This document shows positions 5,107 to 60,831 of a DNA stretch of 64,000 bases, piece after piece; the first letter of the stretch is position 1; each line of letters starts with the position of its first letter. This DNA comes from a virus (taxonomy: Duplodnaviria; Caudoviricetes), in IMG/VR virus record IMGVR_UViG_3300033475_000009, positions 26,550 through 90,549 of that record; one strand, given 5' to 3'. The translations under genes were made by a program, and so were the position numbers. The notes below the pieces were generated by a model that was given only the letters and a program-made list of their open reading frames with translations, did not search any database and had not been told where the DNA came from.

Positions 5107-7110
5107 ATGAAAAAAGTAAAAAAAATTAAAGTTAAAAGATATGCATCAGGTACTCAATTAGTAAGTAATACTGATCCTACAACTTTATATTCTACCAATA
5201 GACAGAATAGTATTAAAGATACTGAGTTCAATAACTCTCAACAAGCTCAATCTAATCAAGATTTAACTAAGTTAGGTTATAATGATAAATTTAATAGTTC
5301 TTTACAAAATGTAAGTCAGAATACTTCTAGTAGAGCTTCTGCACAAGGAACTATTCAAGGAGTAGCTGGAGCTATTAATCCTTTATATGGAGCTGCCTAT
5401 GGAGTAGCTAGCAAAGTAGGTAATTCTTTTTCTAATAAAGCTAGCCAGAATGAAGTTAATACAGGTAAAGCAGATACTAAAAATAATTTCTTATCTAGTG
5501 TAACTACAGATACAGGCAGTAAATTATTGTCCGCTAAAAGTGGTAATGATGTATTAAATGCTTTTGTTCCTTTCTTAGGAGTAAATAGTACTACAGCAGC
5601 TAAAGATGCTCTTAAAGCTAATTATAATAAGAAAAGACAAGACTATGCTAATGGTCAAATAGCTAATTATGGAGCTATAGATACTACAGTACAGAATACT
5701 CAACTAAAGTCTGGTACTTCTGGTATTCATATAAAACCAGAGAATAAAGGTAAGTTTAATGCGCTTAAAGCTAGAACAGGTAAATCTACAGAAGAACTAA
5801 CTCATTCTAAAAATCCTCTTACTAGAAAAAGAGCTATATTTGCTCAAAATGCAGCTAAGTGGAAACATGAGGATGGCTCTAAAGATATTACCTTAGATAA
5901 TCTTATAAAAATACATGAACTTCCTTATAATCAAATTGAAAAGAAAGAAGGCACTAAGATTGAAAAAGATGAACTTAAGGAATTTAAAAAGTTAAAGAAA
6001 TATGAAACTTCTAAACTAAAGTCAGGTACTAGAATGATAGAAACTGAAGGTAGAGAACCTATATTCTCTCCTAAGAAATCTGATGGAAGTAGAGATCTGT
6101 TATATTATAATCCTAATGCTCCTACACATAAAGAAGGAGGAGTTAAAGCTTTAGTTACTAAAACTAATAAATTTAAAGTAAATGGACTACTAAATATACC
6201 TGAGGGATCAGCTATTGTTACAGCTAATAAAGGTAAGAATAAGGAAGCTATTAATGCTTATAAAAAAGGAGATGTTAGTAAATTAGAAAAAGTAATTAAA
6301 CAAATGCCTTCTGATAAATCTAATAAAAAAGCTGGAGGTACTAGTAATCTATTAGATCCTTCTAATAAATATAATCCTTATGGTAAATTAGATCCTAATC
6401 AATCTAATCCTTCAGATAAATGGGGTAATGTAGCTACACAAGATTTAGACTTTAGTAATTCTAATCAAGTAACTTCTACTACTAATACTAATAATACAGG
6501 CTCTAAGCTAAATAATTATTTATTAGAGGGAGTACAAGCAGCTCCTAGTTTATATAATTTAGGAAGAGGTCTTTATGATAAACCTTATAAGACTAATAGA
6601 AGATATATTAATAATCAATCTTATCAATATCAGGATTTATCAGCCCCTTCAAAAAGAGCAGCTAATGAGGCTTATTTAATGGATTCTCAGAATATTAGAA
6701 ATGCTACAGGAGGTGCAGGTGCTACTTATCTAGCTAACCAAAACTTAGCTTCAGCTAATAGATTTAAGAATCTATCAGATATTAATAATCAGCAAGCTGA
6801 GCTTAGAATGAATATTAATAATACTAATACAGATCTTAGAAATCAACAGAATTCTGCTAACTTAAATCTAGCTAATCAATATGATGATATGGATTTGCAG
6901 AATAGAGCTAGAAAAAATGATTTTATAGGATCAGGTTTAACAGGTCTTTCAGATCTAGCTTACCATAAACAAAGAGATGCTAATATGGTAAATGCTGATA
7001 ATATTAGATTACAAACTCTACAATCTAATAACTATAGATATGATCCTAATAAAGGATATATGTTCAAGTCTAAAAAAGGTATTAAGAATATTAAGACTAA
7101 GAAGAAATAA
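5107..7110 (+). CDS. Virion cargo/ejection protein
   Basis: 667 aa, low-complexity N/Q/A/G-rich. Contains the basic module GIHIKPENKGKF..RKRAIFAQNAAKWKH and an ETEGREPI..APTHKEGGV segment typical of crAss-like cargo proteins. Lies between the muzzle and RNAP genes. Confidence 0.65.
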   Translation: MKKVKKIKVKRYASGTQLVSNTDPTTLYSTNRQNSIKDTEFNNSQQAQSNQDLTKLGYNDKFNSSLQNVSQNTSSRASAQGTIQGVAGAINPLYGAAYGVASKVGNSFSNKASQNEVNTGKADTKNNFLSSVTTDTGSKLLSAKSGNDVLNAFVPFLGVNSTTAAKDALKANYNKKRQDYANGQIANYGAIDTTVQNTQLKSGTSGIHIKPENKGKFNALKARTGKSTEELTHSKNPLTRKRAIFAQNAAKWKHEDGSKDITLDNLIKIHELPYNQIEKKEGTKIEKDELKEFKKLKKYETSKLKSGTRMIETEGREPIFSPKKSDGSRDLLYYNPNAPTHKEGGVKALVTKTNKFKVNGLLNIPEGSAIVTANKGKNKEAINAYKKGDVSKLEKVIKQMPSDKSNKKAGGTSNLLDPSNKYNPYGKLDPNQSNPSDKWGNVATQDLDFSNSNQVTSTTNTNNTGSKLNNYLLEGVQAAPSLYNLGRGLYDKPYKTNRRYINNQSYQYQDLSAPSKRAANEAYLMDSQNIRNATGGAGATYLANQNLASANRFKNLSDINNQQAELRMNINNTNTDLRNQQNSANLNLANQYDDMDLQNRARKNDFIGSGLTGLSDLAYHKQRDANMVNADNIRLQTLQSNNYRYDPNKGYMFKSKKGIKNIKTKKK

Positions 7111-24674: not shown

Positions 24675-26597
24675 ATGGTTACAGGACAAAAAGGAGGCTT
24701 ACTTAAAACTGAGTCAAGTAATGATGTATTAAATACTGGATTAGCAGGTTTTGTAGCTAGTCCTAATACTCCTATAACTAGCTCTGATACTATTTTAACT
24801 GCTTTTGATAAAACTCAAGCTCAGTTAAACTCTATAGGTGTAGGCCCATTTGTAAAAACTGATGGAACCACTCCTCTAACAGGTAATTGGGCTGCTGGTA
24901 ATTTTTATATATCCGCTCAAACTATAGGTATTAATACAGATGGTACTATTCCTATTGGTAGTTTACAAGTAGCAGGTAATCTTACTTCTACCATTAGAGG
25001 TATAGTTAATGATCAGTATTCTACTGATACTTTATCAGCTAAAATATACAATAGAAAAGCTAGAGGTACATTTGCTTCTCCTTCTACTATAATAACTGGA
25101 GATGTAATAAGTAATTGGACTTCTTCAGCATATGATGGTACTTCATTTGTAGATACTGCCGATACAAGAATATTAAGTGCTGGCACTATAAGTACTGGAA
25201 TAATACCTTCTCAGATGATGTTTAGGACGACTAATAGCTTGGGTACATTAACCCAAGCATTAACTATAGATGAAAATCAAAATATATCTGTAGGAAATAT
25301 CAATCCAGTTACTGGAATGGGAAGAGTTATACATTTGTATAATACTTCTAACGTTGCAACATCAGCAGATAATGCATCTTTTTTAGCACAGTCAGTTAAT
25401 AGAAATTCTTTATTTATAGCAAGAACTTCAGCCACTGGTACTTCATCTTTTCAACATCAATCTAATGATGGGTTAACAACTTATGGAAGTATGTTATGGT
25501 TTGCTTTAGGTGGATCCCATGTTTGGCAAATTAATTCAGATAATACTCAAAAATTAGCTATAGATACTACTGGATTTTTTTCATTAGGAACTGTAGCCAC
25601 TCCAACAGCATTACTAGATGTTAATGGTGTATCTACAGCATTTTCTAAAACTGCATGGACTACTAATGGAACTATTTTAAGAATCCGACCTTTTACTATT
25701 ACAGACACAAATTCTTCTGGTACAGTTCCAGCACAATATGTAAATGTTTTTGGCGCACCAACAATTGCTGCTTCATCAACTACTGCTTATACGTTAAGTG
25801 CTAATACATTTATTGCTGGACCTACTGCTGGAACAAATGTAACTCAGACTAATACAGCAGCTTTAGTATTAGGAGGAAATTTGTATTTTAATGCTAGTGC
25901 GACTGTTGTTGTGGGTACTTTTGATGCACAAACATTAAGTTTAAGAACAAATAATACTACTAGACAGTCCATAACTTCAGCGGGAGCATTTACATTTTCA
26001 TCTTCTGCATTTTCAGGTACACAAGCTTTCATGACCTTTACACCTGGTACATCATCATCAGGTACATCATCGGGATTAATTTGGACAGGCGCACCTCATA
26101 CTGGTCAAACTGCAAGTACTGAGATAATTGATATTAACTATGCTCTTAACAGAACTATTACATGGTCTACAGGAGCGTTGACTACTCAAAGATTCTTTTT
26201 AGTTCAAGCACCTACTATAGCATTTGCAGGAGCTAGTACAGTAACACAAGCAGCTACATTTGTTATTAGTGCAGCACCTATTGCTGGGGCTAATGCTACT
26301 ATAACAGAAAGTAATGCTTTTTGGGTACAAAGTGGGCAAAGTAGATTTGACGGAGCTATCAAAATAATTGATAATAATATTATTTTAAGCACAGTAACAG
26401 GTACTATACTTGGTACATCCACTACTCAGAAATTATCTTTCTGGAATAAAACACCAGTAGTTCAACCTACAACATCTATAACAGCGTCTACATTTGCAGC
26501 TAACACTTCTGGAATATTGAATGATACAGCTACTTGGGATAGTTATACAATAGGAAAAGTAGTAGCAGCTTTAAGACAAGTAGGAATTCTAGCATAA
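24675..26597 (+). CDS. Tail fibre / receptor-binding protein
   Basis: 640 aa, T/S/G/A-rich beta-repeat sequence. FVKTDGTTPLTGNW and VVGTFDAQTLSLRTNNTTR fibre-type motifs. Confidence 0.7.
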   Translation: MVTGQKGGLLKTESSNDVLNTGLAGFVASPNTPITSSDTILTAFDKTQAQLNSIGVGPFVKTDGTTPLTGNWAAGNFYISAQTIGINTDGTIPIGSLQVAGNLTSTIRGIVNDQYSTDTLSAKIYNRKARGTFASPSTIITGDVISNWTSSAYDGTSFVDTADTRILSAGTISTGIIPSQMMFRTTNSLGTLTQALTIDENQNISVGNINPVTGMGRVIHLYNTSNVATSADNASFLAQSVNRNSLFIARTSATGTSSFQHQSNDGLTTYGSMLWFALGGSHVWQINSDNTQKLAIDTTGFFSLGTVATPTALLDVNGVSTAFSKTAWTTNGTILRIRPFTITDTNSSGTVPAQYVNVFGAPTIAASSTTAYTLSANTFIAGPTAGTNVTQTNTAALVLGGNLYFNASATVVVGTFDAQTLSLRTNNTTRQSITSAGAFTFSSSAFSGTQAFMTFTPGTSSSGTSSGLIWTGAPHTGQTASTEIIDINYALNRTITWSTGALTTQRFFLVQAPTIAFAGASTVTQAATFVISAAPIAGANATITESNAFWVQSGQSRFDGAIKIIDNNIILSTVTGTILGTSTTQKLSFWNKTPVVQPTTSITASTFAANTSGILNDTATWDSYTIGKVVAALRQVGILA

Positions 26598-32828: not shown

Positions 32829-33405
32829 TATATACTATTTTACTTATATGAAATTCCATCTTTTCTTTATGTCTTGGAGTAGGTATCCATTCAGTACCTC
32901 CTGAAGCTCTTATATACTCTACTGAATCATCAGGTATAATATTCTTTTTAACTAATAAATCAGTAAATACCTTAAAATAAATCGGACCTTTGTTATCAAT
33001 GTCCACCGGCATCTCGTTAGAATATATAAATAATTGCAATCTTAAAGGAAACTCGGTAATAGGTTCTATATTAATCCAATCATCTAAATGGGCTTTTATA
33101 ATGTTCATATAATTAGATCTTTGTATTGGTTTAATATAGCCATTATATATAGATTGAAAATTAATAACCCAATATCTTTCTTTACCAACTATTATAGGAT
33201 TAGAAATTATTTTTTCTTCTGTAAGTACGTTTATTAGTATACCTTGATTATTAAAAGTATAATTATTATTATTATATTTTTTTGGAAGAGACTTACCATT
33301 AATATTAAATGGTTTATATTTAGATTTTAGATAATATTTAGGTCTAATTTTTTGACTTATTGTTATCTTATCTAGATAAGGCATCTGTATTATTATCTTT
33401 TCCAT
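32821..33405 (-). CDS. RusA-like Holliday junction resolvase
   Basis: C-terminal VDIDNKG..KVFTDLLVKKNIIPDDS (DxDN...D...DD acidic pattern). Confidence 0.65.
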   Translation of the reverse strand: MEKIIIQMPYLDKITISQKIRPKYYLKSKYKPFNINGKSLPKKYNNNNYTFNNQGILINVLTEEKIISNPIIVGKERYWVINFQSIYNGYIKPIQRSNYMNIIKAHLDDWINIEPITEFPLRLQLFIYSNEMPVDIDNKGPIYFKVFTDLLVKKNIIPDDSVEYIRASGGTEWIPTPRHKEKMEFHISKIVYNE

Positions 33406-34150
33406 TATTAATCATTAAACTATTTAAAAATCCTTCTTTTACATCTACTAACCAATTATTATAATCTCTAATAGTATTAAACTTAGGTATATTAAGAGTT
33501 TTAGATATTTCAGCTTCTATAGAATCTACGAATATAGTAGGAATACTATAGTCTTTAATTAGCTTAGTTATCTTATTATAAGTTATTAACTCGTTACCTA
33601 AACATCTATTCTTACCATCTTTTATAGCTAATATATAGAAACAATCAAATTCTGGTTCTACTTTAGCTAATATACAAAGTTTAATATAATAAATATATTC
33701 TGGTTTAATACAACATAAATATATAAATCCATTATCATTACCTAAAGTATAAAAAGATAATATACCAAAAGAAGATCTATGTAATGAATTACTTAAACAA
33801 GTAATCATTTGTGATAAATATTTAAGACTAGTATAAGTATTAGCTATAAATATATTATTAGTTCTATAATTAGATAAAAAAGTATTTAAGTTAGCTTTAT
33901 TAAATTTATCTATTTCTACAAAACTACTTAAATTATAATATTTTTTATTTATAGTAATATTATTGATTACACTAGATTCAAAATAAAAAGTATCTTCTAT
34001 TAAGTTAGTAAAGTCTAATAATTTAAATACAGGATAATGTTTATTAAGATCCAAATAATAATTTAAATCTGGAAAATCTTGATTTATTTTAGAACTTATA
34101 AAACTTTTATCTATGGATATTAGCATATTGTTGTCTTGTATAGTTTTCAA
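33368..34150 (-). CDS. Hypothetical protein directly downstream of the E1 gene
   Basis: 260-aa ORF overlapping the E1 3' end; the start position is uncertain. Confidence 0.55.
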   Translation of the reverse strand: MKTIQDNNMLISIDKSFISSKINQDFPDLNYYLDLNKHYPVFKLLDFTNLIEDTFYFESSVINNITINKKYYNLSSFVEIDKFNKANLNTFLSNYRTNNIFIANTYTSLKYLSQMITCLSNSLHRSSFGILSFYTLGNDNGFIYLCCIKPEYIYYIKLCILAKVEPEFDCFYILAIKDGKNRCLGNELITYNKITKLIKDYSIPTIFVDSIEAEISKTLNIPKFNTIRDYNNWLVDVKEGFLNSLMINNGKDNNTDALSR

Positions 34151-35093
34151 ATAACATCATAGGACTATTAAATGTAGTAGCAAAAGGTATTTCTCTAATA
34201 TCTATACCTTTCATTTTATTAGCTACAAAGTTTAAAAATCCTATAGATATAATACTAGCTATCATAGTACCTGTTTGACAAGTAGCTTTAAAACTACAAG
34301 GAGCATCAGGTACTTCTATATCTTCAAATAAAGTAGTCTTATATAGTTCTGCATCAGCTTTGTTTTTAATAAAGAATACTTGCATAGATTCAATATTCAT
34401 TCTACTATCAATGAAAATATTTATTTCATTAGGATTTGCTTCTCTATATTCAGGTGTTTTAGATAACTGATAAGAATACCATTTATCAAATAATATTTTT
34501 CTAGCATTCATATTATCAAAGCAACTAAATACAATATTATCTATAGGAGAATCTTCATCAAATCTACCTAAAGCAGTATAAGTACTATTACCATATTCTA
34601 AAGCAATTTCTTTAGCTTTCTGAGCTTTATTCTTACCTATATCTTTTATACCATACATTTGACTCAAATGTATAAACATATATACTTTCATATATAACTG
34701 GACTATACCTTAATCCTATAAGGATTCCCATTGGTAGTCTCTGAGAGCTTATCCTTTTTATAAGAATCTATCTCTGCTGATTGTCCAATCTTTTAAATTT
34801 TTAGATATTTTATACATTACTATATAAAATTACTATTAAAAGCTCTAAGGAGTTTCCAGCATATTCTGGGTTTGCTAATTAAATCACTTTAATTAGGGGC
34901 AGTCAACTTTACCCACATTAACAGTATCAATAGTATCAAAGTCATATAAATAAGTATCATATCCTTGTCTACTTAGTATATAAGATAGATGGCTACCTAT
35001 TCCTCCTAGTCCTGCTATAATAACTGATAAATTAGGATTAAAAAAAGGAGCGTCTTTAAAACGCTCCTGTGTTTGTTTAGCTTTTATTTCCAT
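34107..35093 (-). CDS. ThiF/MoeB/E1-like adenylyltransferase, spliced (exon1 35093-34911, exon2 34664-34107; 246 aa)
   Basis: Exon1 has AGLGGIGS and DFDTIDTVNVG. Exon2 has SQMYGIKDIGKNK, CFDNMNARK and DAPCS. The exons join in frame (183+558 nt) after removal of the group I intron. Confidence 0.9.
34665..34910 (-). mobile_element. Group I self-splicing intron (246 nt, no ORF) in the E1 gene
   Basis: 5' exon ends ..GGGU and pairs with IGS GCCC (U.G). P10 UUGACU pairs with 3' exon AGUCAA. P AUAUGCUGGAAA, Q AAUCAGCAG, R UCAGAGACUAC, S AAGGUAUAGUCC. P9 has a GAAA tetraloop; terminal G at 34665. Confidence 0.93.
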
Positions 35094-36205
35094 TCTTCTG
35101 TAATTTCTTGTTTAATTACATCTATTGTATCTTTAATAATGTCTTTAATAGCTACTTCACTTGGATGTTCTCCCATCATTATTTGAATATGATTTCTAAT
35201 TTCAAATAATTCAGTAGGGGTAGTATTTTCTCCAAATATTTTATAAAAAACATCTTCAGCAATAGCTTCTATATATTCTTTATATTGCTCTATTACTGAC
35301 ATACCTATTTCTTCATTCCAACTATCTTTAGCTTGAGAAAGTGTTAATAACTCACACTCTACACAATCTTCATCCTGCATAATTAAACTAATTAGAAAGT
35401 CAGCAGATTTGCCTTTAAGATCTCTCTTTTTACCATTATAAGTATCATATTTATTTAAAGATTTATTAAAGGATTGTTGATTTTGTGAAACTTGCCATTT
35501 ATAATTAGGTTGATAAGAAGTATTATAATTCAAATTTAAACTTAGTTGTTTAGCTTCTTCTTTAGCTATCTTAGCTTGAGTAAGTTTATTAAATTCTTCA
35601 TCTACGTCATTCTGTATATTTATAATACAATCATAGGTATAGATCACTTCTACTTTCTCTACTACAGCTACTTTCTCTACATACCCTTTTTTGAATTTAT
35701 AGCTATATTTAACGTTACCTTCTTTGAAACCATGTAAAGATACTTTAGCTATACAATCTCCTTGTATATTCACTATAACTGATAAAAAATAAGGATAATC
35801 CTGAGCTTTCTCTAATAGAGTATCCCAATCTGTGCCAGAAAAGAATACCTTCATATTATTGTGAGTATGTAGTAAACCTTGTTTTAATTCCATTAACTGA
35901 GGTCTTTTATCAAACATTTCTACTACTTGCTCTCCTGTAGGATCTATTTCTGTAAAAGCTGCTGTTCCTAAATCCATTAATACAAATTCTTCTACATTAA
36001 GAATTAAATTATCAGGATCTTCTATACTGCCTTCAGGTCTAAAGTATATATAACCTGAATACTCTTCTTTATACTTAGCATGTAAGTAATGAATATCAGA
36101 CCATATTTTCTGAGGTATATTAACTTTAATCTTTTCACTACATTCAATTTTGTTCTTTGTCGATGTAGTAGTCATAGACTCTGAAAAGGATGTATTTTTT
36201 TGCAT
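35084..36205 (-). CDS. JAB/MPN+ (JAMM) metalloprotease, deubiquitinase-like
   Basis: EYSG...HTHNNMKVFFSGTD = exact HxH-x7-S-x2-D motif, followed by a low-complexity linker and an acidic C-terminal domain. Confidence 0.9.
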   Translation of the reverse strand: MQKNTSFSESMTTTSTKNKIECSEKIKVNIPQKIWSDIHYLHAKYKEEYSGYIYFRPEGSIEDPDNLILNVEEFVLMDLGTAAFTEIDPTGEQVVEMFDKRPQLMELKQGLLHTHNNMKVFFSGTDWDTLLEKAQDYPYFLSVIVNIQGDCIAKVSLHGFKEGNVKYSYKFKKGYVEKVAVVEKVEVIYTYDCIINIQNDVDEEFNKLTQAKIAKEEAKQLSLNLNYNTSYQPNYKWQVSQNQQSFNKSLNKYDTYNGKKRDLKGKSADFLISLIMQDEDCVECELLTLSQAKDSWNEEIGMSVIEQYKEYIEAIAEDVFYKIFGENTTPTELFEIRNHIQIMMGEHPSEVAIKDIIKDTIDVIKQEITEEWK

Positions 36206-37619
36206 ATTCTGTTATATTAGGATGTACTACTTTTTTAAAATTAGTATTTTCACTACTAACTATATTTTCTATTTCTAAAAAAACTTTCTTATTACCTAAA
36301 GTACATAAAGGTTTTATATATTCAGATTCTAAAGGCTCTATATTATTATTAAGTTTAAAATATTGATTAAGCTCTGTATCTTTATAACAAAACTGTTTAT
36401 ATATAGTAGGGAAATTTAAAGCTAACTCAGTAATAGAATCTTCTAATAAATTAAAATCTAAACTAAAGTTATTATTAATCTTATCAAAAGTTAAGTTAAT
36501 ATTAACTTCATTATTAGCTATAGCTTCTGAAATTATTTTCTTTCCATTATTTTCTATACTATAATTATCTATAGATCTTTTTACTAATAATTGATCTATT
36601 CTTCTATGAGGACCACCTTCTATTGATTCCCAGCCTACATATATAGATAAAGTAGCAAAGAATATTTCATAATCTATTATATTATAATCTCTATATAACT
36701 TTCCTTTTAACTCTACTAATGGGCCTGATCCTAAACAGAAAGTATTTATAGAAAAATCATTATTATTAGGTAAATGAGAATGATGGTATTTATTATGTTT
36801 TTCTATATTAGTAAGCTTACTTCTAAAACCAAATGGACCTCTTAGTAATTTACCTTGTGTATTAATAGTAATACCTACATATAAATCTTTTATTGTATGG
36901 TTAATTTTATCGGCATTAGTAATATTTATTTCTGGAAATTTAATAATTAAAACTAGTGGAGCATTAAAGAAATCTAATTCACTATAATAAGTTCTTCTAG
37001 TTTGGCAATTTAAATCAAAAGTTTCACTAGTATTCTGTAACCACCAATTACCTGGATAGAATTTATCTATAGATTCTTTAAATTCTTTATAAAAAGATAA
37101 AGATTCAATATCTATCTTATTATATTTTCTTCTTTGCCATACACCATTAATTATAGCAAATCCATTAGAGAGAGCTACTTCTGTATTTATAAAATAATAT
37201 ACAACTTCTCCCTCTTCTACTATTTTTATTAGATTTTTTGTATCATCTGCTACACTTACTGTATCTTCAGAATCTATATACGCCTCTACTATTCTATGAA
37301 TATCTTCATATCTATTATTATAACTAACATAATAATATTCATATCTAGAAACCCAATAATTTCTATGGCTTACAAATTCATATTCTGAACTAGCTTCTAC
37401 AAAACTACCATCTCTTAATTGTATAAGATCTTTAGCTACACTTTCTTCTACTTCAATAGTATTATTTTCTATATATTCTATTTCTATTTCTTCTGTATCT
37501 TCATTAATATTCTCTTGATCTGAAATAGTACCATTAATCATTAAAGACATTAACTCAGATTCATTCTGTAAAGCTTGTCTTTCCTGTTCTGTTAATTGAG
37601 TTCTTCTTACTATATCCAT
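36144..37619 (-). CDS. Prokaryotic E2 (UBC)-like conjugating enzyme with acidic N-terminal extension
   Basis: IIKFPEINITN..HTIKDLYV..YHHSHLP..FCLGSG (candidate catalytic Cys at 36735-36737)..YVGWESIEGGP. Confidence 0.7.
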   Translation of the reverse strand: MDIVRRTQLTEQERQALQNESELMSLMINGTISDQENINEDTEEIEIEYIENNTIEVEESVAKDLIQLRDGSFVEASSEYEFVSHRNYWVSRYEYYYVSYNNRYEDIHRIVEAYIDSEDTVSVADDTKNLIKIVEEGEVVYYFINTEVALSNGFAIINGVWQRRKYNKIDIESLSFYKEFKESIDKFYPGNWWLQNTSETFDLNCQTRRTYYSELDFFNAPLVLIIKFPEINITNADKINHTIKDLYVGITINTQGKLLRGPFGFRSKLTNIEKHNKYHHSHLPNNNDFSINTFCLGSGPLVELKGKLYRDYNIIDYEIFFATLSIYVGWESIEGGPHRRIDQLLVKRSIDNYSIENNGKKIISEAIANNEVNINLTFDKINNNFSLDFNLLEDSITELALNFPTIYKQFCYKDTELNQYFKLNNNIEPLESEYIKPLCTLGNKKVFLEIENIVSSENTNFKKVVHPNITEYAKKYILFRVYDYYIDKEQN

Positions 37620-37629
37620 AAGATAAAAT

Positions 37630-37657
37630 AGGTAGTATTAGTTATCTAATACTACCT
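37630..37657 (-). terminator. Intrinsic terminator-like hairpin between the Ubl and E2 genes
   Basis: 12-bp perfect stem AGGTAGTATTAG-ataa-CTAATACTACCT followed by ATTTT on the - strand. Confidence 0.7.
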
Positions 37658-37669
37658 TTAAAGTTTAAT

Positions 37670-38386
37670 TTATAAACCTAATTTCTTAAAATCCTTAGCC
37701 AGATCTTCTTCTGATAGAAGTTTAGATTCACTAGGTAAAATGGTTTTACCTTCTTCTATATTAGTTATAACTTTTGTTTTAGCTAATTTAGCTTCTTCTT
37801 TAGTCATTTTCTGCTTAGGAAATACATTATTAAGCACTTCAGAGAATCCTTCAAGCAAAGTACCTAGTGTACTTTCAAGAGCTTCTATTCTTTCTAGTAG
37901 ATCAGGAGTATTTTCTTTAACAGATTTTTCTACTTTCTCCTTAATTTCTTTTCTCTTTTCTTTAGCTACTTTAGAAGTACCTTTAACTTCTGATAAGCCT
38001 GTATACTTAGTAAGAATAGCAATTAGATCTTTAGTTTTAGGATTACTACCAATAGCAGGAATATCAGGATTAGTTTCTCTAAGTTTAGCTACTTCTTTTC
38101 TAAGTTCATTATACTTTAAGTTTTCAAAGTCTTTAGTAGCTCCAGATTTCATTTTATCTTGTACTAGATAAATTACTTGATTACCTTCTGGTACTAAAGC
38201 ATCGGGTAACTGAAGAATTCCTTTAGTTGATCTAAGAACAGCTTTTCTATTATGAAGACTCATATCTGCTTCTTCAATTAGAGGTATGATATCTGACCAT
38301 TTAGTAGCTCCTGTTTCAACCGTAATAGTTTCTCCAGTTACTCCATCATAGATTTGTACTGTTCTTATAGTTTGTAATTGTGACAT
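37670..38386 (-). CDS. Ubiquitin-like (beta-grasp) domain ending in KMKSG82, fused to a SAP/HeH-like motif and a coiled-coil tail
   Basis: RTVQIYD..TITVETGATKWSDII..KAVLR..DALVPEGNQVIYLVQDKMKSG fits a beta-grasp pattern. It is followed by LKYNELRKEVAKL..GSNPKTKDLIAIL. Context is E2/JAB/E1. Confidence 0.65.
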   Translation of the reverse strand: MSQLQTIRTVQIYDGVTGETITVETGATKWSDIIPLIEEADMSLHNRKAVLRSTKGILQLPDALVPEGNQVIYLVQDKMKSGATKDFENLKYNELRKEVAKLRETNPDIPAIGSNPKTKDLIAILTKYTGLSEVKGTSKVAKEKRKEIKEKVEKSVKENTPDLLERIEALESTLGTLLEGFSEVLNNVFPKQKMTKEEAKLAKTKVITNIEEGKTILPSESKLLSEEDLAKDFKKLGL

Positions 38387-38411: not shown

Positions 38412-39050
38412 TTATTCTACTGTATATTTAACTCCTTTATAAACTAGCCAAGATATGGTGTTTATATTTACCGGTCTTATTGCCTTAGATAGATCATTAG
38501 TATCAGTTACTAAGTCCATATCTATACAATTATATTTACCATCTCTAGAAGAGAATTGTACCTTATATCCTCTAAGTATTCTTTCTTCTCCTAATTCAAT
38601 AGGTAGAATAGGATTAGCTTGAATTTCTTGAATAACTTTCTTAGCTTCTTCTGCTACACCTTTCTTAGACTTAGCAGCAGATTCTATTTTACCCACTGCT
38701 TCTAATATTTGAGCGTCTCTAAGCTCCTTTAGTTTCTTAGTACTAAGCGGAGTATCTTGTTTTCTAAAGCATACAGTAAATACTTGACTATCATAAATTT
38801 CTTCAAATAAACTTCTTATGCCTTTTTTAGTACCATCTTTACTATCTTCTTTAGTTACTTTTTCTTCAGAAAAATATTGATCAGCTGTAGTTAATAGATC
38901 AGATACATATTTTTCATCTAAAGAGATAGTATTACCTGATTCAAGATGCTCAAATTTATAAGCTTTACCATCTATTTTAGTAAATTTATAATGACTTACT
39001 TCACTAAATATATCTCCAGCTTTAATATCTTTTACTTTATTAGAATTCAT
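38412..39050 (-). CDS. Conserved crAss-like hypothetical protein
   Basis: 212 aa, FSEVSHY..VFTVCFRKQ..ERILRGYK..RPVNINTISWLVYKGVKY. Confidence 0.6.
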   Translation of the reverse strand: MNSNKVKDIKAGDIFSEVSHYKFTKIDGKAYKFEHLESGNTISLDEKYVSDLLTTADQYFSEEKVTKEDSKDGTKKGIRSLFEEIYDSQVFTVCFRKQDTPLSTKKLKELRDAQILEAVGKIESAAKSKKGVAEEAKKVIQEIQANPILPIELGEERILRGYKVQFSSRDGKYNCIDMDLVTDTNDLSKAIRPVNINTISWLVYKGVKYTVE

Positions 39051-39729
39051 TATCTATTGATTTAGTATAAAAATTATTTGTTAATGTATCTACACTTACT
39101 CCTATAGAGACAGATTTAGAATATAACATAGTAGAAGCAGTTCTATATTTGGCTACTCTTTCTATATCTTCAGCTGTGTTATTATGTGCTAAAATATTAG
39201 ATTCTGGAATACCTATATTAATTAATCTAAACTTATCTTGCTCTGTACAGTTAAATGTAATAGTCCACTTATTTACATTAATTAATTTATCAATATAAGT
39301 AGCTATCTTACTAGAACCATATTTACCGCTACCTCTTTCTGTATCATCACCATCAGTAAATATTTTAACTAAAACTCTTTCCCCTTCTTTTATCATAGGT
39401 TCTAGTTCTTCAAACAGTTTACCCATTGAATTATACAATGGAGTACCTCCTGAAGCTAGAATAGGTCTAAAGGACTTTAGCTCTTTATCTACAAACATAT
39501 GTCTTGTAAATCTGCTACTATCAAATTCTACTAATGTATATAGGAAATCACTGTTAGTATCTTTAGATAGTATATCTAACTCTTCTCTAATAGATTTAAT
39601 AGCACTATCATACTTACTTCCAGCCATACTACCACTAGCATCAGTCAGGATAATATTATGTATAATAGGCTTAGTAGAACTATTAGGTTTATTAGTTTTA
39701 TTTTCTTTATTGATTTGATCTACTCTCAT
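39040..39729 (-). CDS. von Willebrand factor A (vWA) domain protein
   Basis: MIDAS motif ILTDASGSM..GGTPLY..IFTDGDD. Confidence 0.85.
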   Translation of the reverse strand: MRVDQINKENKTNKPNSSTKPIIHNIILTDASGSMAGSKYDSAIKSIREELDILSKDTNSDFLYTLVEFDSSRFTRHMFVDKELKSFRPILASGGTPLYNSMGKLFEELEPMIKEGERVLVKIFTDGDDTERGSGKYGSSKIATYIDKLINVNKWTITFNCTEQDKFRLINIGIPESNILAHNNTAEDIERVAKYRTASTMLYSKSVSIGVSVDTLTNNFYTKSIDNEF

Positions 39730-60757: not shown

Positions 60758-60831
60758 TGGACCCTATAGGATTTGAACCTATGACTTATTCATTATGAGT
60801 GAATTACTCTGACCAACTGAGTTAAGAGTCC
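60758..60831 (-). tRNA. tRNA with CAU anticodon (Ile2-like; Met not excluded); CCA not encoded
   Basis: GGACUCU/AGGGUCC acceptor, ACUC/GAGU D stem, AUUCA-CUCAUAA-UGAAU anticodon arm, AUAGG-UUCAAAU-CCUAU T arm, discriminator A. C4-G69 and A3-U70 favour Ile2. Confidence 0.92.

Follow-up and report, generated by a model that had tools for sequence, protein, structure and literature searches.

A putative ubiquitin-like conjugation cassette within the replication module of crAss-like phages

Introduction

Do bacteriophages run a protein-conjugation machinery of their own? The question is raised by a locus in IMG/VR virus record IMGVR_UViG_3300033475_000009 (Caudoviricetes), of which we analyzed positions 26,550 to 90,549, a stretch of 64,000 nucleotides hereafter called the window. 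At 34107..38386, on the minus strand, four genes in a row appear to encode the precursor of a ubiquitin-like protein (Ubl), an E2-like protein, a JAB/JAMM protease and an E1-type adenylating enzyme. A first-pass annotation made from the letters of the window had read these genes as a complete cassette for Ubl conjugation. The present analysis supports that interpretation: the four-gene set reads as a Ubl-conjugation cassette, and we consider it probable that it forms a module specific to a phage lineage, co-transcribed with replication genes and working through the cascade proposed below.

The characterized prokaryotic E1/E2/JAB pathways (type II CBASS, Bil and Bub) are all bacterial, and those with a tested role are directed against phages. 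Here the same toolkit is fixed within a phage replication module, across very divergent crAss-like phages, some of which belong to the phage group that is most abundant in the human gut. An active cassette would make protein tagging with a Ubl a viral strategy in bacteria as it is in eukaryotes, and it would provide a function for four conserved genes that are now 'hypothetical' or mislabelled 'thiamine biosynthesis'. Full-text searches, in which subscription papers are poorly covered so that an earlier description is possible, returned no literature linking crAss-like phages to ThiF, JAB, E2 or Ubl conjugation and, in keeping with the first-pass annotation, no functional description of a full cassette. 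The main text of the crAss001 paper does not mention the cassette genes; the nearest publication is a 2026 preprint that refers to a gut-phage E1-like family in passing.

Results and Discussion

Four genes kept together in divergent phages

The open reading frame (ORF) listing agrees with the annotated arrangement of four adjacent minus-strand genes, three of which overlap. The Ubl precursor gene (37670..38386, 238 aa) is followed, after a gap of 50 nt, by the E2-like gene (36144..37619, 491 aa), the JAB/JAMM gene (35084..36205, 373 aa), and the E1 gene, which is split by an intron (34107..35093; spliced product of 246 aa). Overlaps of 62 nt between the E2-like and JAB genes and of 10 nt between the JAB and E1 genes suggest that these three are translated in a coupled fashion. 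All of the motifs on which the earlier reading had relied, namely KMKSG82 in the Ubl, HSHLP and FCLG in the E2-like protein, HTH-x7-S-x2-D in the protease and GLGGIG, DN..AR and PCS in the E1, are present at the correct positions.

A pattern scan of IMG/VR yielded 59 loci, and locally built hidden Markov models (HMMs) were applied to 61 related loci. In 57 of the 61, genes for the Ubl, E2, JAB and E1 proteins follow one another in this order on the same strand, with family HMM E values from 1e-7 to 1e-92, so that the synteny the annotation had asked about extends across related phages. Of the remaining four, three run into a contig end, and one (L006) has no Ubl match at the threshold used. 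The order of the cassette is kept despite just 25-40% identity among loci; the shared order and strand of the four genes are far beyond chance.

A primase gene lies upstream of the cassette in 61/61 loci, and in the window the neighbors are the primase, a RusA-like resolvase, an exonuclease VIII-like protein and PolA, which bears out the placement of the cassette inside the replication module. The window PolA is closest to PolA of crAss-like phages, at about 30% identity. The virus record from which the window is taken measures 90,549 bp, carries direct terminal repeats and stems from a soil metagenome. When the locus was compared by blastn with 50,697 phage records, no DNA-level relative was found; the locus occurs in just two soil-metagenome DNA runs, one of which is probably its source, and no RNA run containing it was listed.

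At the protein level, genes for the E2-like and E1 proteins occur in 72-74 GenBank phage records. The carriers comprise Steigviridae (crAss001, DAC15/17), PhiCrAssBcn isolates, cr-series genomes and 29 Flavobacterium psychrophilum phages. In crAss001 the four products are Gp79 (hypothetical, containing KIKSG), Gp78 (hypothetical), Gp77 ('metalloprotease domain') and Gp76 ('ThiF'); among GenBank labels, the E1 alone is named ('ThiF' or 'thiamine biosynthesis protein'), joined by the protease in crAss001. Since the cultured phages crAss001 (Gp79-Gp76), DAC15 and Fpv1 carry the cassette, the hypothesis of phage-encoded conjugation is directly testable.

The E2-like gene was found in just two contigs of metagenome-assembled genomes among 185,579 prokaryote genomes, which makes the family essentially phage-restricted within the sensitivity of the scan. 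One of these contigs (L062) carries all four cassette genes, and the other, of 3.4 kb (L063), has the Ubl and E2-like genes. The contigs are labelled Nitrososphaerota and Metamycoplasmataceae. Because L062 holds the whole phage-type cassette, both hits look like phage contigs that were binned with cellular genomes.

A Ubl precursor with a predicted processing site

The first-pass annotation had proposed a beta-grasp fold for residues 1-82 of the Ubl precursor (38141..38386, minus strand), a domain that ends in K-M-K-S-G82. The AlphaFold2 (AF2) model, with a predicted local distance difference test score (pLDDT) of 84.8 that exceeds 95 over residues 10-70, has beta-beta-alpha-beta-beta topology with strands at 8-14, 20-25, 47-51 and 70-76 and a helix at 30-39. 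A Foldseek search of the PDB matched it to the UBX domain of FAF1, ubiquitin, SUMO, NEDD8 and ISG15 with probability 1.0 and target TM-scores of 0.6-0.7; the root-mean-square deviations were 2.1-3.4 Å over 74-84 residues, with E values of just ~2e-3. As modelled, then, the Ubl candidate is predicted to possess the beta-grasp fold of ubiquitin-like modifiers, in line with the proposal. The window protein matched no Pfam, NCBIfam or PADLOC entry.

An exhaustive HMMER search with residues 1-100 as the query retrieved 106 relatives. In an alignment of 47 sequences, P66 and G82 are invariant, K78 and S81 nearly so, and conservation ends abruptly past the K-S-G. The motif K-[SA]-G closes the Ubl domain in nearly all of the 59 viral loci; the tails that follow it measure 0-266 aa, and some orthologues stop 0-3 residues past the glycine. 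Taken together, the invariance of G82, the drop in conservation behind it and the orthologues that stop right there are the hallmark of a processed, C-terminally activated Ubl, whose terminal glycine is predicted to be exposable by processing.

In the window protein, the tail comprises 156 residues (37670..38140, minus strand); a helix-loop-helix of SAP/HeH type is followed in it by a long helix and, at the C terminus, by an acidic helix that is conserved. It is predicted to be helical, and the segment at about 92-129 resembles SAP/HeH domains; relatives give isolated weak matches to SAP, Rho_N and Ish1. We regard the SAP-like nature of the tail as a lead only, one that raises the idea that the precursor may be bound to DNA before cleavage. 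The SAP/HeH-like segment and the acidic C-terminal helix are also seen in crAss001 Gp79 and in DAC15.

Several other proteins were considered as Ubl relatives. Giant proteins of 1,589-3,295 aa, plus one of 816 aa, repeatedly matched the Ubl query; they fail the family HMM, and the matches are spurious. No second Ubl domain was found elsewhere in the window, including a 667-aa protein of the virion block (5107..7110, plus strand). In that protein K[SA]G occurs four times where 0.84 occurrences are expected (P ~0.013, uncorrected), an excess that is not significant after correction over 29 ORFs; three of the motifs lie about 103 aa apart, which makes an internal repeat likely.

The E2-like protein has an invariant cysteine

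The 69 homologues of the E2-like protein share invariant G264, Y278, H280, S281, H282, C295, G297, E331, S332, G335 and P337. Four of these residues, H280, S281, H282 and C295, are invariant in 41 sequences; the motif W-E-S-I-E-G-x-P at 330-337 is invariant too. The HSHLP motif corresponds to residues 280-284 and FCLG holds C295, with H-S-H placed 13 residues before the cysteine; the C295 codon occupies 36735-36737, where the annotation had put it. The protein is thus predicted to carry a catalytic-type cysteine with a preceding conserved histidine, an HPN-like arrangement. As S281 is likewise invariant, transfer might instead take an oxyester route, as in Bub (PMC11601596).

A structural model of the 491-aa protein (pLDDT 82.6) falls into three parts. 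Its core, residues 169-345 (36585..37115, minus strand), is built of a helix, a beta-meander, the loop with H-S-H and C295, and further helices, and in the model C295 sits in a loop directly before the helix 300-310; the N- and C-terminal domains on either side of the core have no fold assignment. Among 31 structural match rows that cover the core, all of them weak, 18 are E2, UEV or RWD proteins by title, and UFC1 and Atg3 came up in addition. The resemblance of the modelled core to UBC, UEV and RWD folds is weak but consistent. Foldseek with the whole 491-aa model gave nothing at E <= 1e-3, probably because the full model masks the UBC-like domain. The window copy has no Pfam, NCBIfam or PADLOC match, and profile searches against PDB sequences with the E2-like and JAB families produced no usable match; clusters of Prok-E2_D and UQ_con in the ESM Atlas are leads only.

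A JAMM protease and a minimal E1

In the product of the protease gene (35084..36205), the catalytic domain covers about residues 20-215, and the C-terminal region behind it is helical. Residues E48, H113, H115, S123 and D126, which make up a complete JAMM motif, are invariant in an alignment of 20 sequences, and the protein is therefore predicted to be of the JAB/JAMM (MPN+) type, with the signature E...HxH-x7-S-xx-D. Whereas scans of Pfam, NCBIfam and PADLOC gave no match for the window protein, 13 of 20 relatives weakly matched Pfam Prok-JAB (PF14464; best E 6.5e-4). PHROGs 16107 and 21448 match the JAB protein. An alternative start at M11 (36175) coincides with the start of the database copy P0176, which has 363 aa.

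Most of the 35 homologues of the E1 are about 245 aa long, and 29 of the 35 listed carry a precomputed PF00899 match. GLGGIG, DFDTIDTVNVG|SQ (D-x-D...N-x-G-x-Q), GKNKA, FDN..AR and the cysteine of APCS are nearly invariant in their alignment, and that cysteine is a candidate for the crossover-loop cysteine. When its two exons were scored apart, the window E1 reached 21.5 bits (exon 1, profile 20-60) and 13.8 bits against the Pfam ThiF cut-off of 28.1; the NCBIfam matches were to generic ThiF and MoeB models and to PRTRC_ThiF, all far below cut-offs. Judged by its sequence, the protein is a minimal adenylating enzyme of the ThiF/MoeB type that consists of the adenylation domain only.

A group I intron interrupts the E1 gene

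The annotation of 34107..35093 as a ThiF-type enzyme stood, whereas its reading as an uninterrupted ORF did not. The single-frame translation is filled with stops between ...VNVG and SQMY..., which shows that the E1 is not encoded in one ORF. Exon 1 (34911..35093, minus strand) has 61 codons, holds the GLGGIG nucleotide-binding loop and ends in ...DTVNVG. Exon 2 (34107..34664, minus strand), of 185 codons, starts with SQMYGIKDIGKNKA... and contains FDN..AR and APCS. Between them lies a segment of 246 nt without an ORF (34665..34910, minus strand) that matches Rfam RF00028: a search of 34500..35100 gave a full-length match (model 1-253) of 43 bits, E 1.2e-9, which does not reach the gathering score of 50.

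Further features conform to a group I intron. The GGGU at the end of exon 1 can pair with GCCC of the internal guide to form P1, with a U.G wobble at the 5' splice site. In P10, AGUCAA of exon 2 pairs with UUGACU, six bases located directly 5' of the guide segment. With the G at 34665 ahead of this AGUCAA, both P10 and the terminal base are defined, and the intron is placed at 34665..34910. The predicted spliced E1 is a stop-free protein of 246 aa that aligns continuously with the Fpv1 ThiF (E 3e-49) and with the DAC15 E1, and positions 3-61 of PHROG 15670 correspond to exon 1 and positions 62-226 to exon 2. Across the junction VNVG|SQMY the product is colinear with orthologues of ~245 aa that lack the intron and read VN(I/V)G at this place, and the exons abut exactly. 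On the covariance match, P1, P10, the terminal G and the restored frame, we predict that 34665..34910 is a group I intron.

Related loci are interrupted elsewhere. L048 has a group I intron within the JAB gene (L048:7207-7431, plus strand) that scores 59.5 bits with Rfam, above gathering. In L003, L004 and L020 the interruption of the E1 gene lies at another site, HMM position ~145-152; the JAB gene is split in Fpv1 (L002), L008, L048 and L049, and the E2-like gene in L037 and L050. The split in the JAB gene of Fpv1 spans ~1 kb and includes an ORF on the opposite strand (L002:6101-6850). The cassette looks like a hot spot for introns or mobile elements. Insertions of this kind typically occur in phage genes that are conserved and important for function, and their presence in different cassette genes of different phages is an argument, if indirect, that the cassette is important to the phage and has a core role.

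A proposed conjugation cascade

How might the four proteins act together? The sequences and models show the folds as predicted, the motifs and catalytic residues, the intron with its exact junction, and a strictly kept gene order; from these we infer the chemistry of the following scheme at each step, the direction in which the Ubl is passed on, and its targets. The E1 pre-mRNA would self-splice its 246-nt group I intron to yield the 246-aa ThiF-type adenylating enzyme. The JAB protease would cut the Ubl precursor past Gly82 (K-S-G|A) and so free the 82-residue beta-grasp domain from its SAP-like, coiled-coil tail. The E1 would then adenylate the Gly82 carboxylate and probably load the Ubl as a thioester on the cysteine of APCS, from where it would move to C295 of the E2-like protein, H280 and H282 taking the role of the canonical HPN motif. 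The Ubl would finally be joined to lysines of phage or host proteins during the replication phase, and the JAB protease may also reverse this conjugation.

The fixed place of the cassette in the replication block favors a core role over that of an accessory anti-defence gene. A more ambitious version of the proposal, which we hold to be possible rather than probable, is that a conserved branch of crAss-like phages (among them crAss001, DAC15 and the Flavobacterium Fpv phages) runs its own Ubl conjugation within the core replication programme; its Ubl would be freed from a precursor that binds DNA through the SAP-like part and would be joined to proteins of the replisome or the host. Such a module would be the first virus-encoded E1-E2-deubiquitinase-Ubl system in the prokaryotic world, of a lineage independent of Bil, Bub and CBASS.

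Relation to known prokaryotic systems

The bacterial anti-phage system Bil has the same list of parts in four separate genes: BilA (Ubl), BilB (E2), BilC (JAB deubiquitinase) and BilD (E1). Its JAB enzyme BilC pre-processes the Ubl to bare the glycine, after which separate E1 and E2 proteins conjugate it via cysteine thioesters (PMC10557695), and we propose a similar course for the phage cassette. In contrast to the 246-aa phage E1, which lacks a separate CYS domain, the Bil E1 is a multidomain protein with a mobile CYS domain. Likewise, the phage Ubl has a single domain and ends in S-G, unlike the Bil Ubl, and Bil resides in bacterial defence loci whereas the phage cassette resides in a core replication module. 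No sequence model ties the phage cassette proteins to Bil.

The PRTRC cassettes, which correspond to operon type 6d in Iyer, Burroughs and Aravind (2006) and occur on plasmids and integrative and conjugative elements, combine a Ubl, a JAB, an E1-like and an E2-like protein with an alpha-helical protein (PMC1779556). They have in common with the phage cassette four separate components on a mobile element, a conserved C-terminal glycine of the Ubl and a minimal E1 (PMC1779556). PRTRC also provides the sole system-specific sequence signal: PRTRC_ThiF is matched by 18 of 20 E1 orthologues (best E 5.7e-11) and PRTRC_A by 5 of 20 JAB relatives (E 0.015), all far below curated cut-offs, the PRTRC_ThiF score being well under the 144.75-bit cut-off. 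There is no match to PRTRC_B in the phage genome, and no ParB-type partner turned up among the ORFs scanned at 31-42 kb, with no ParB model run directly. The 6d E2-like proteins are without the upstream histidine and use a downstream one (PMC1779556), while the upstream H-x-H is invariant in the phage family; the long tail of the phage Ubl sets it apart from the small Ubl of PRTRC/6d.

Two further systems differ in their chemistry or extent. Bub (type 6E/DUF6527) forms Tyr/Ser oxyesters without catalytic cysteines and uses the serine protease BubE (PMC11601596), whereas the phage E2-like protein has an invariant cysteine and the E1 a nearly invariant one; the ORFs scanned against Pfam, a part of the genome, gave no DUF6527 match. 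In phages Lambda and T1, TAPI (Ubl) is a beta-grasp protein with a conserved C-terminal glycine and an extra domain, and the adjacent TAPK (JAB plus NlpC/P60) is predicted to cleave it (PMC1779556). TAPI/TAPK comes without an E1 or E2 and belongs to the tail module, performing processing without conjugation, unlike the cassette of the replication module. As the defining features of Bil and of 6d/PRTRC are lacking, we take the cassette to be a phage-specific variant of the prokaryotic Ubl-E1-E2-JAB systems. It falls outside Bil, Bub, CBASS and PRTRC.

Alternative explanations

Could the cassette serve another end? Phages often carry mimics of host immune parts, and the module might be aimed at host Bil, type II CBASS/Cap2-Cap3 or Bub, with the JAB protease stripping conjugates, the Ubl acting as a decoy, or the cassette tagging and inactivating defence proteins. 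Such a counter-defence role would suit the fact that the characterized bacterial E1/E2/JAB systems with a tested role act in phage defence (PMC11601596; PMC10557695), and the 2026 preprint mentions that the E1-like family of gut phages may be homologous to defence proteins. In each of the 57 complete loci, however, the cassette occupies a fixed site within the core replication block; it bears introns as core genes do, and no defence model comes close to its sequences. Genes directed against host defences usually belong to the variable, accessory part of a phage genome. We therefore find counter-defence unlikely; it is in any case a statement about the biological role, and the same chemistry is compatible with it.

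Other alternatives touch the chemistry itself. In a sulfur-carrier pathway the E1 would adenylate and thiocarboxylate the Ubl, as in the pairs ThiF-ThiS and MoeB-MoaD, the JAB protease would expose the glycine, and the sulfur would go to a modified nucleotide, a tRNA or a cofactor. The E1 is indeed a minimal enzyme of the ThiF/MoeB type whose best NCBIfam matches are ThiF and MoeB models, its gene bears the GenBank label 'thiamine biosynthesis protein', and sulfur-assimilation clusters of JAB, Ubl and E1 genes are known in prokaryotes (PMC1779556). All of the ThiF and MoeB matches, though, lie far below curated cut-offs. An E2-like gene with invariant His and Cys always stands between the Ubl and JAB genes; the Ubl ends in S-G rather than G-G, and no rhodanese, cysteine desulfurase or sulfurtransferase is present among the neighbors examined. 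On balance, sulfur transfer seems to us quite unlikely. A further alternative is a non-conjugating assembly or regulatory complex in which an inert UEV/RWD-type E2-like core and an uncleaved Ubl-SAP protein, serving as a DNA-bound adaptor, accompany an E1 that acts on a different carboxylate, for instance that of a peptide or nucleotide substrate. The best structural matches of the E2-like core are non-catalytic UEV and RWD proteins and not active E2s, most orthologues retain the conserved SAP-like tail after the Ubl domain, and ThiF-like enzymes act also in secondary metabolism and in the synthesis of ribosomally synthesized and post-translationally modified peptides. The invariance of C295, H280 and H282 is nonetheless hard to square with an inert domain. 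With some Ubl orthologues being tail-less and ending in K-S-G plus 0-3 residues, and with a JAB protease bearing the full catalytic motif always present, we judge a non-conjugating complex very unlikely, and Ubl conjugation is the reading that we prefer.

Additional features of the locus

The cassette genes are separated at one place only, by the 50 nt that follow the Ubl gene, and there a consensus scan detected a 12-bp hairpin with a T-rich tract (37630..37657, minus strand). It may be a partial terminator or attenuator and could raise the Ubl mRNA over the mRNAs of the enzymes. A GC-rich hairpin of 8-10 bp followed by T7 at 35046-35068 (both strands), within the first 50 nt of E1 exon 1, is terminator-like but coding.

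Overlapping the end of the E1 gene is a fast-diverging ORF of 260 aa (33368..34150, minus strand). According to a locally built HMM, with which the window copy scores E 5e-28, its family stands directly after the E1 in at least 33 of 57 loci. The family alignment is nearly without invariant residues, and the ORF has no Pfam match. It is possible that this protein is a fifth member of the cassette, as an adaptor, an E3-like factor or a target.

Between the primase and Ubl genes, the window also carries genes for a vWA-like protein (with a DASGS MIDAS-type motif; PHROG 7371) and for a 212-aa protein (38412..39729, minus strand). We considered and rejected them as module members: they are present in just 1-2 other loci (L022, L051), which marks them as lineage-specific additions. 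Elsewhere in the window, Rfam identified one clear tRNA at 60758-60831 (minus strand, 71 bits) and a weak, truncated tRNA-like match at 49616-49677 (minus strand, 36.6 bits).

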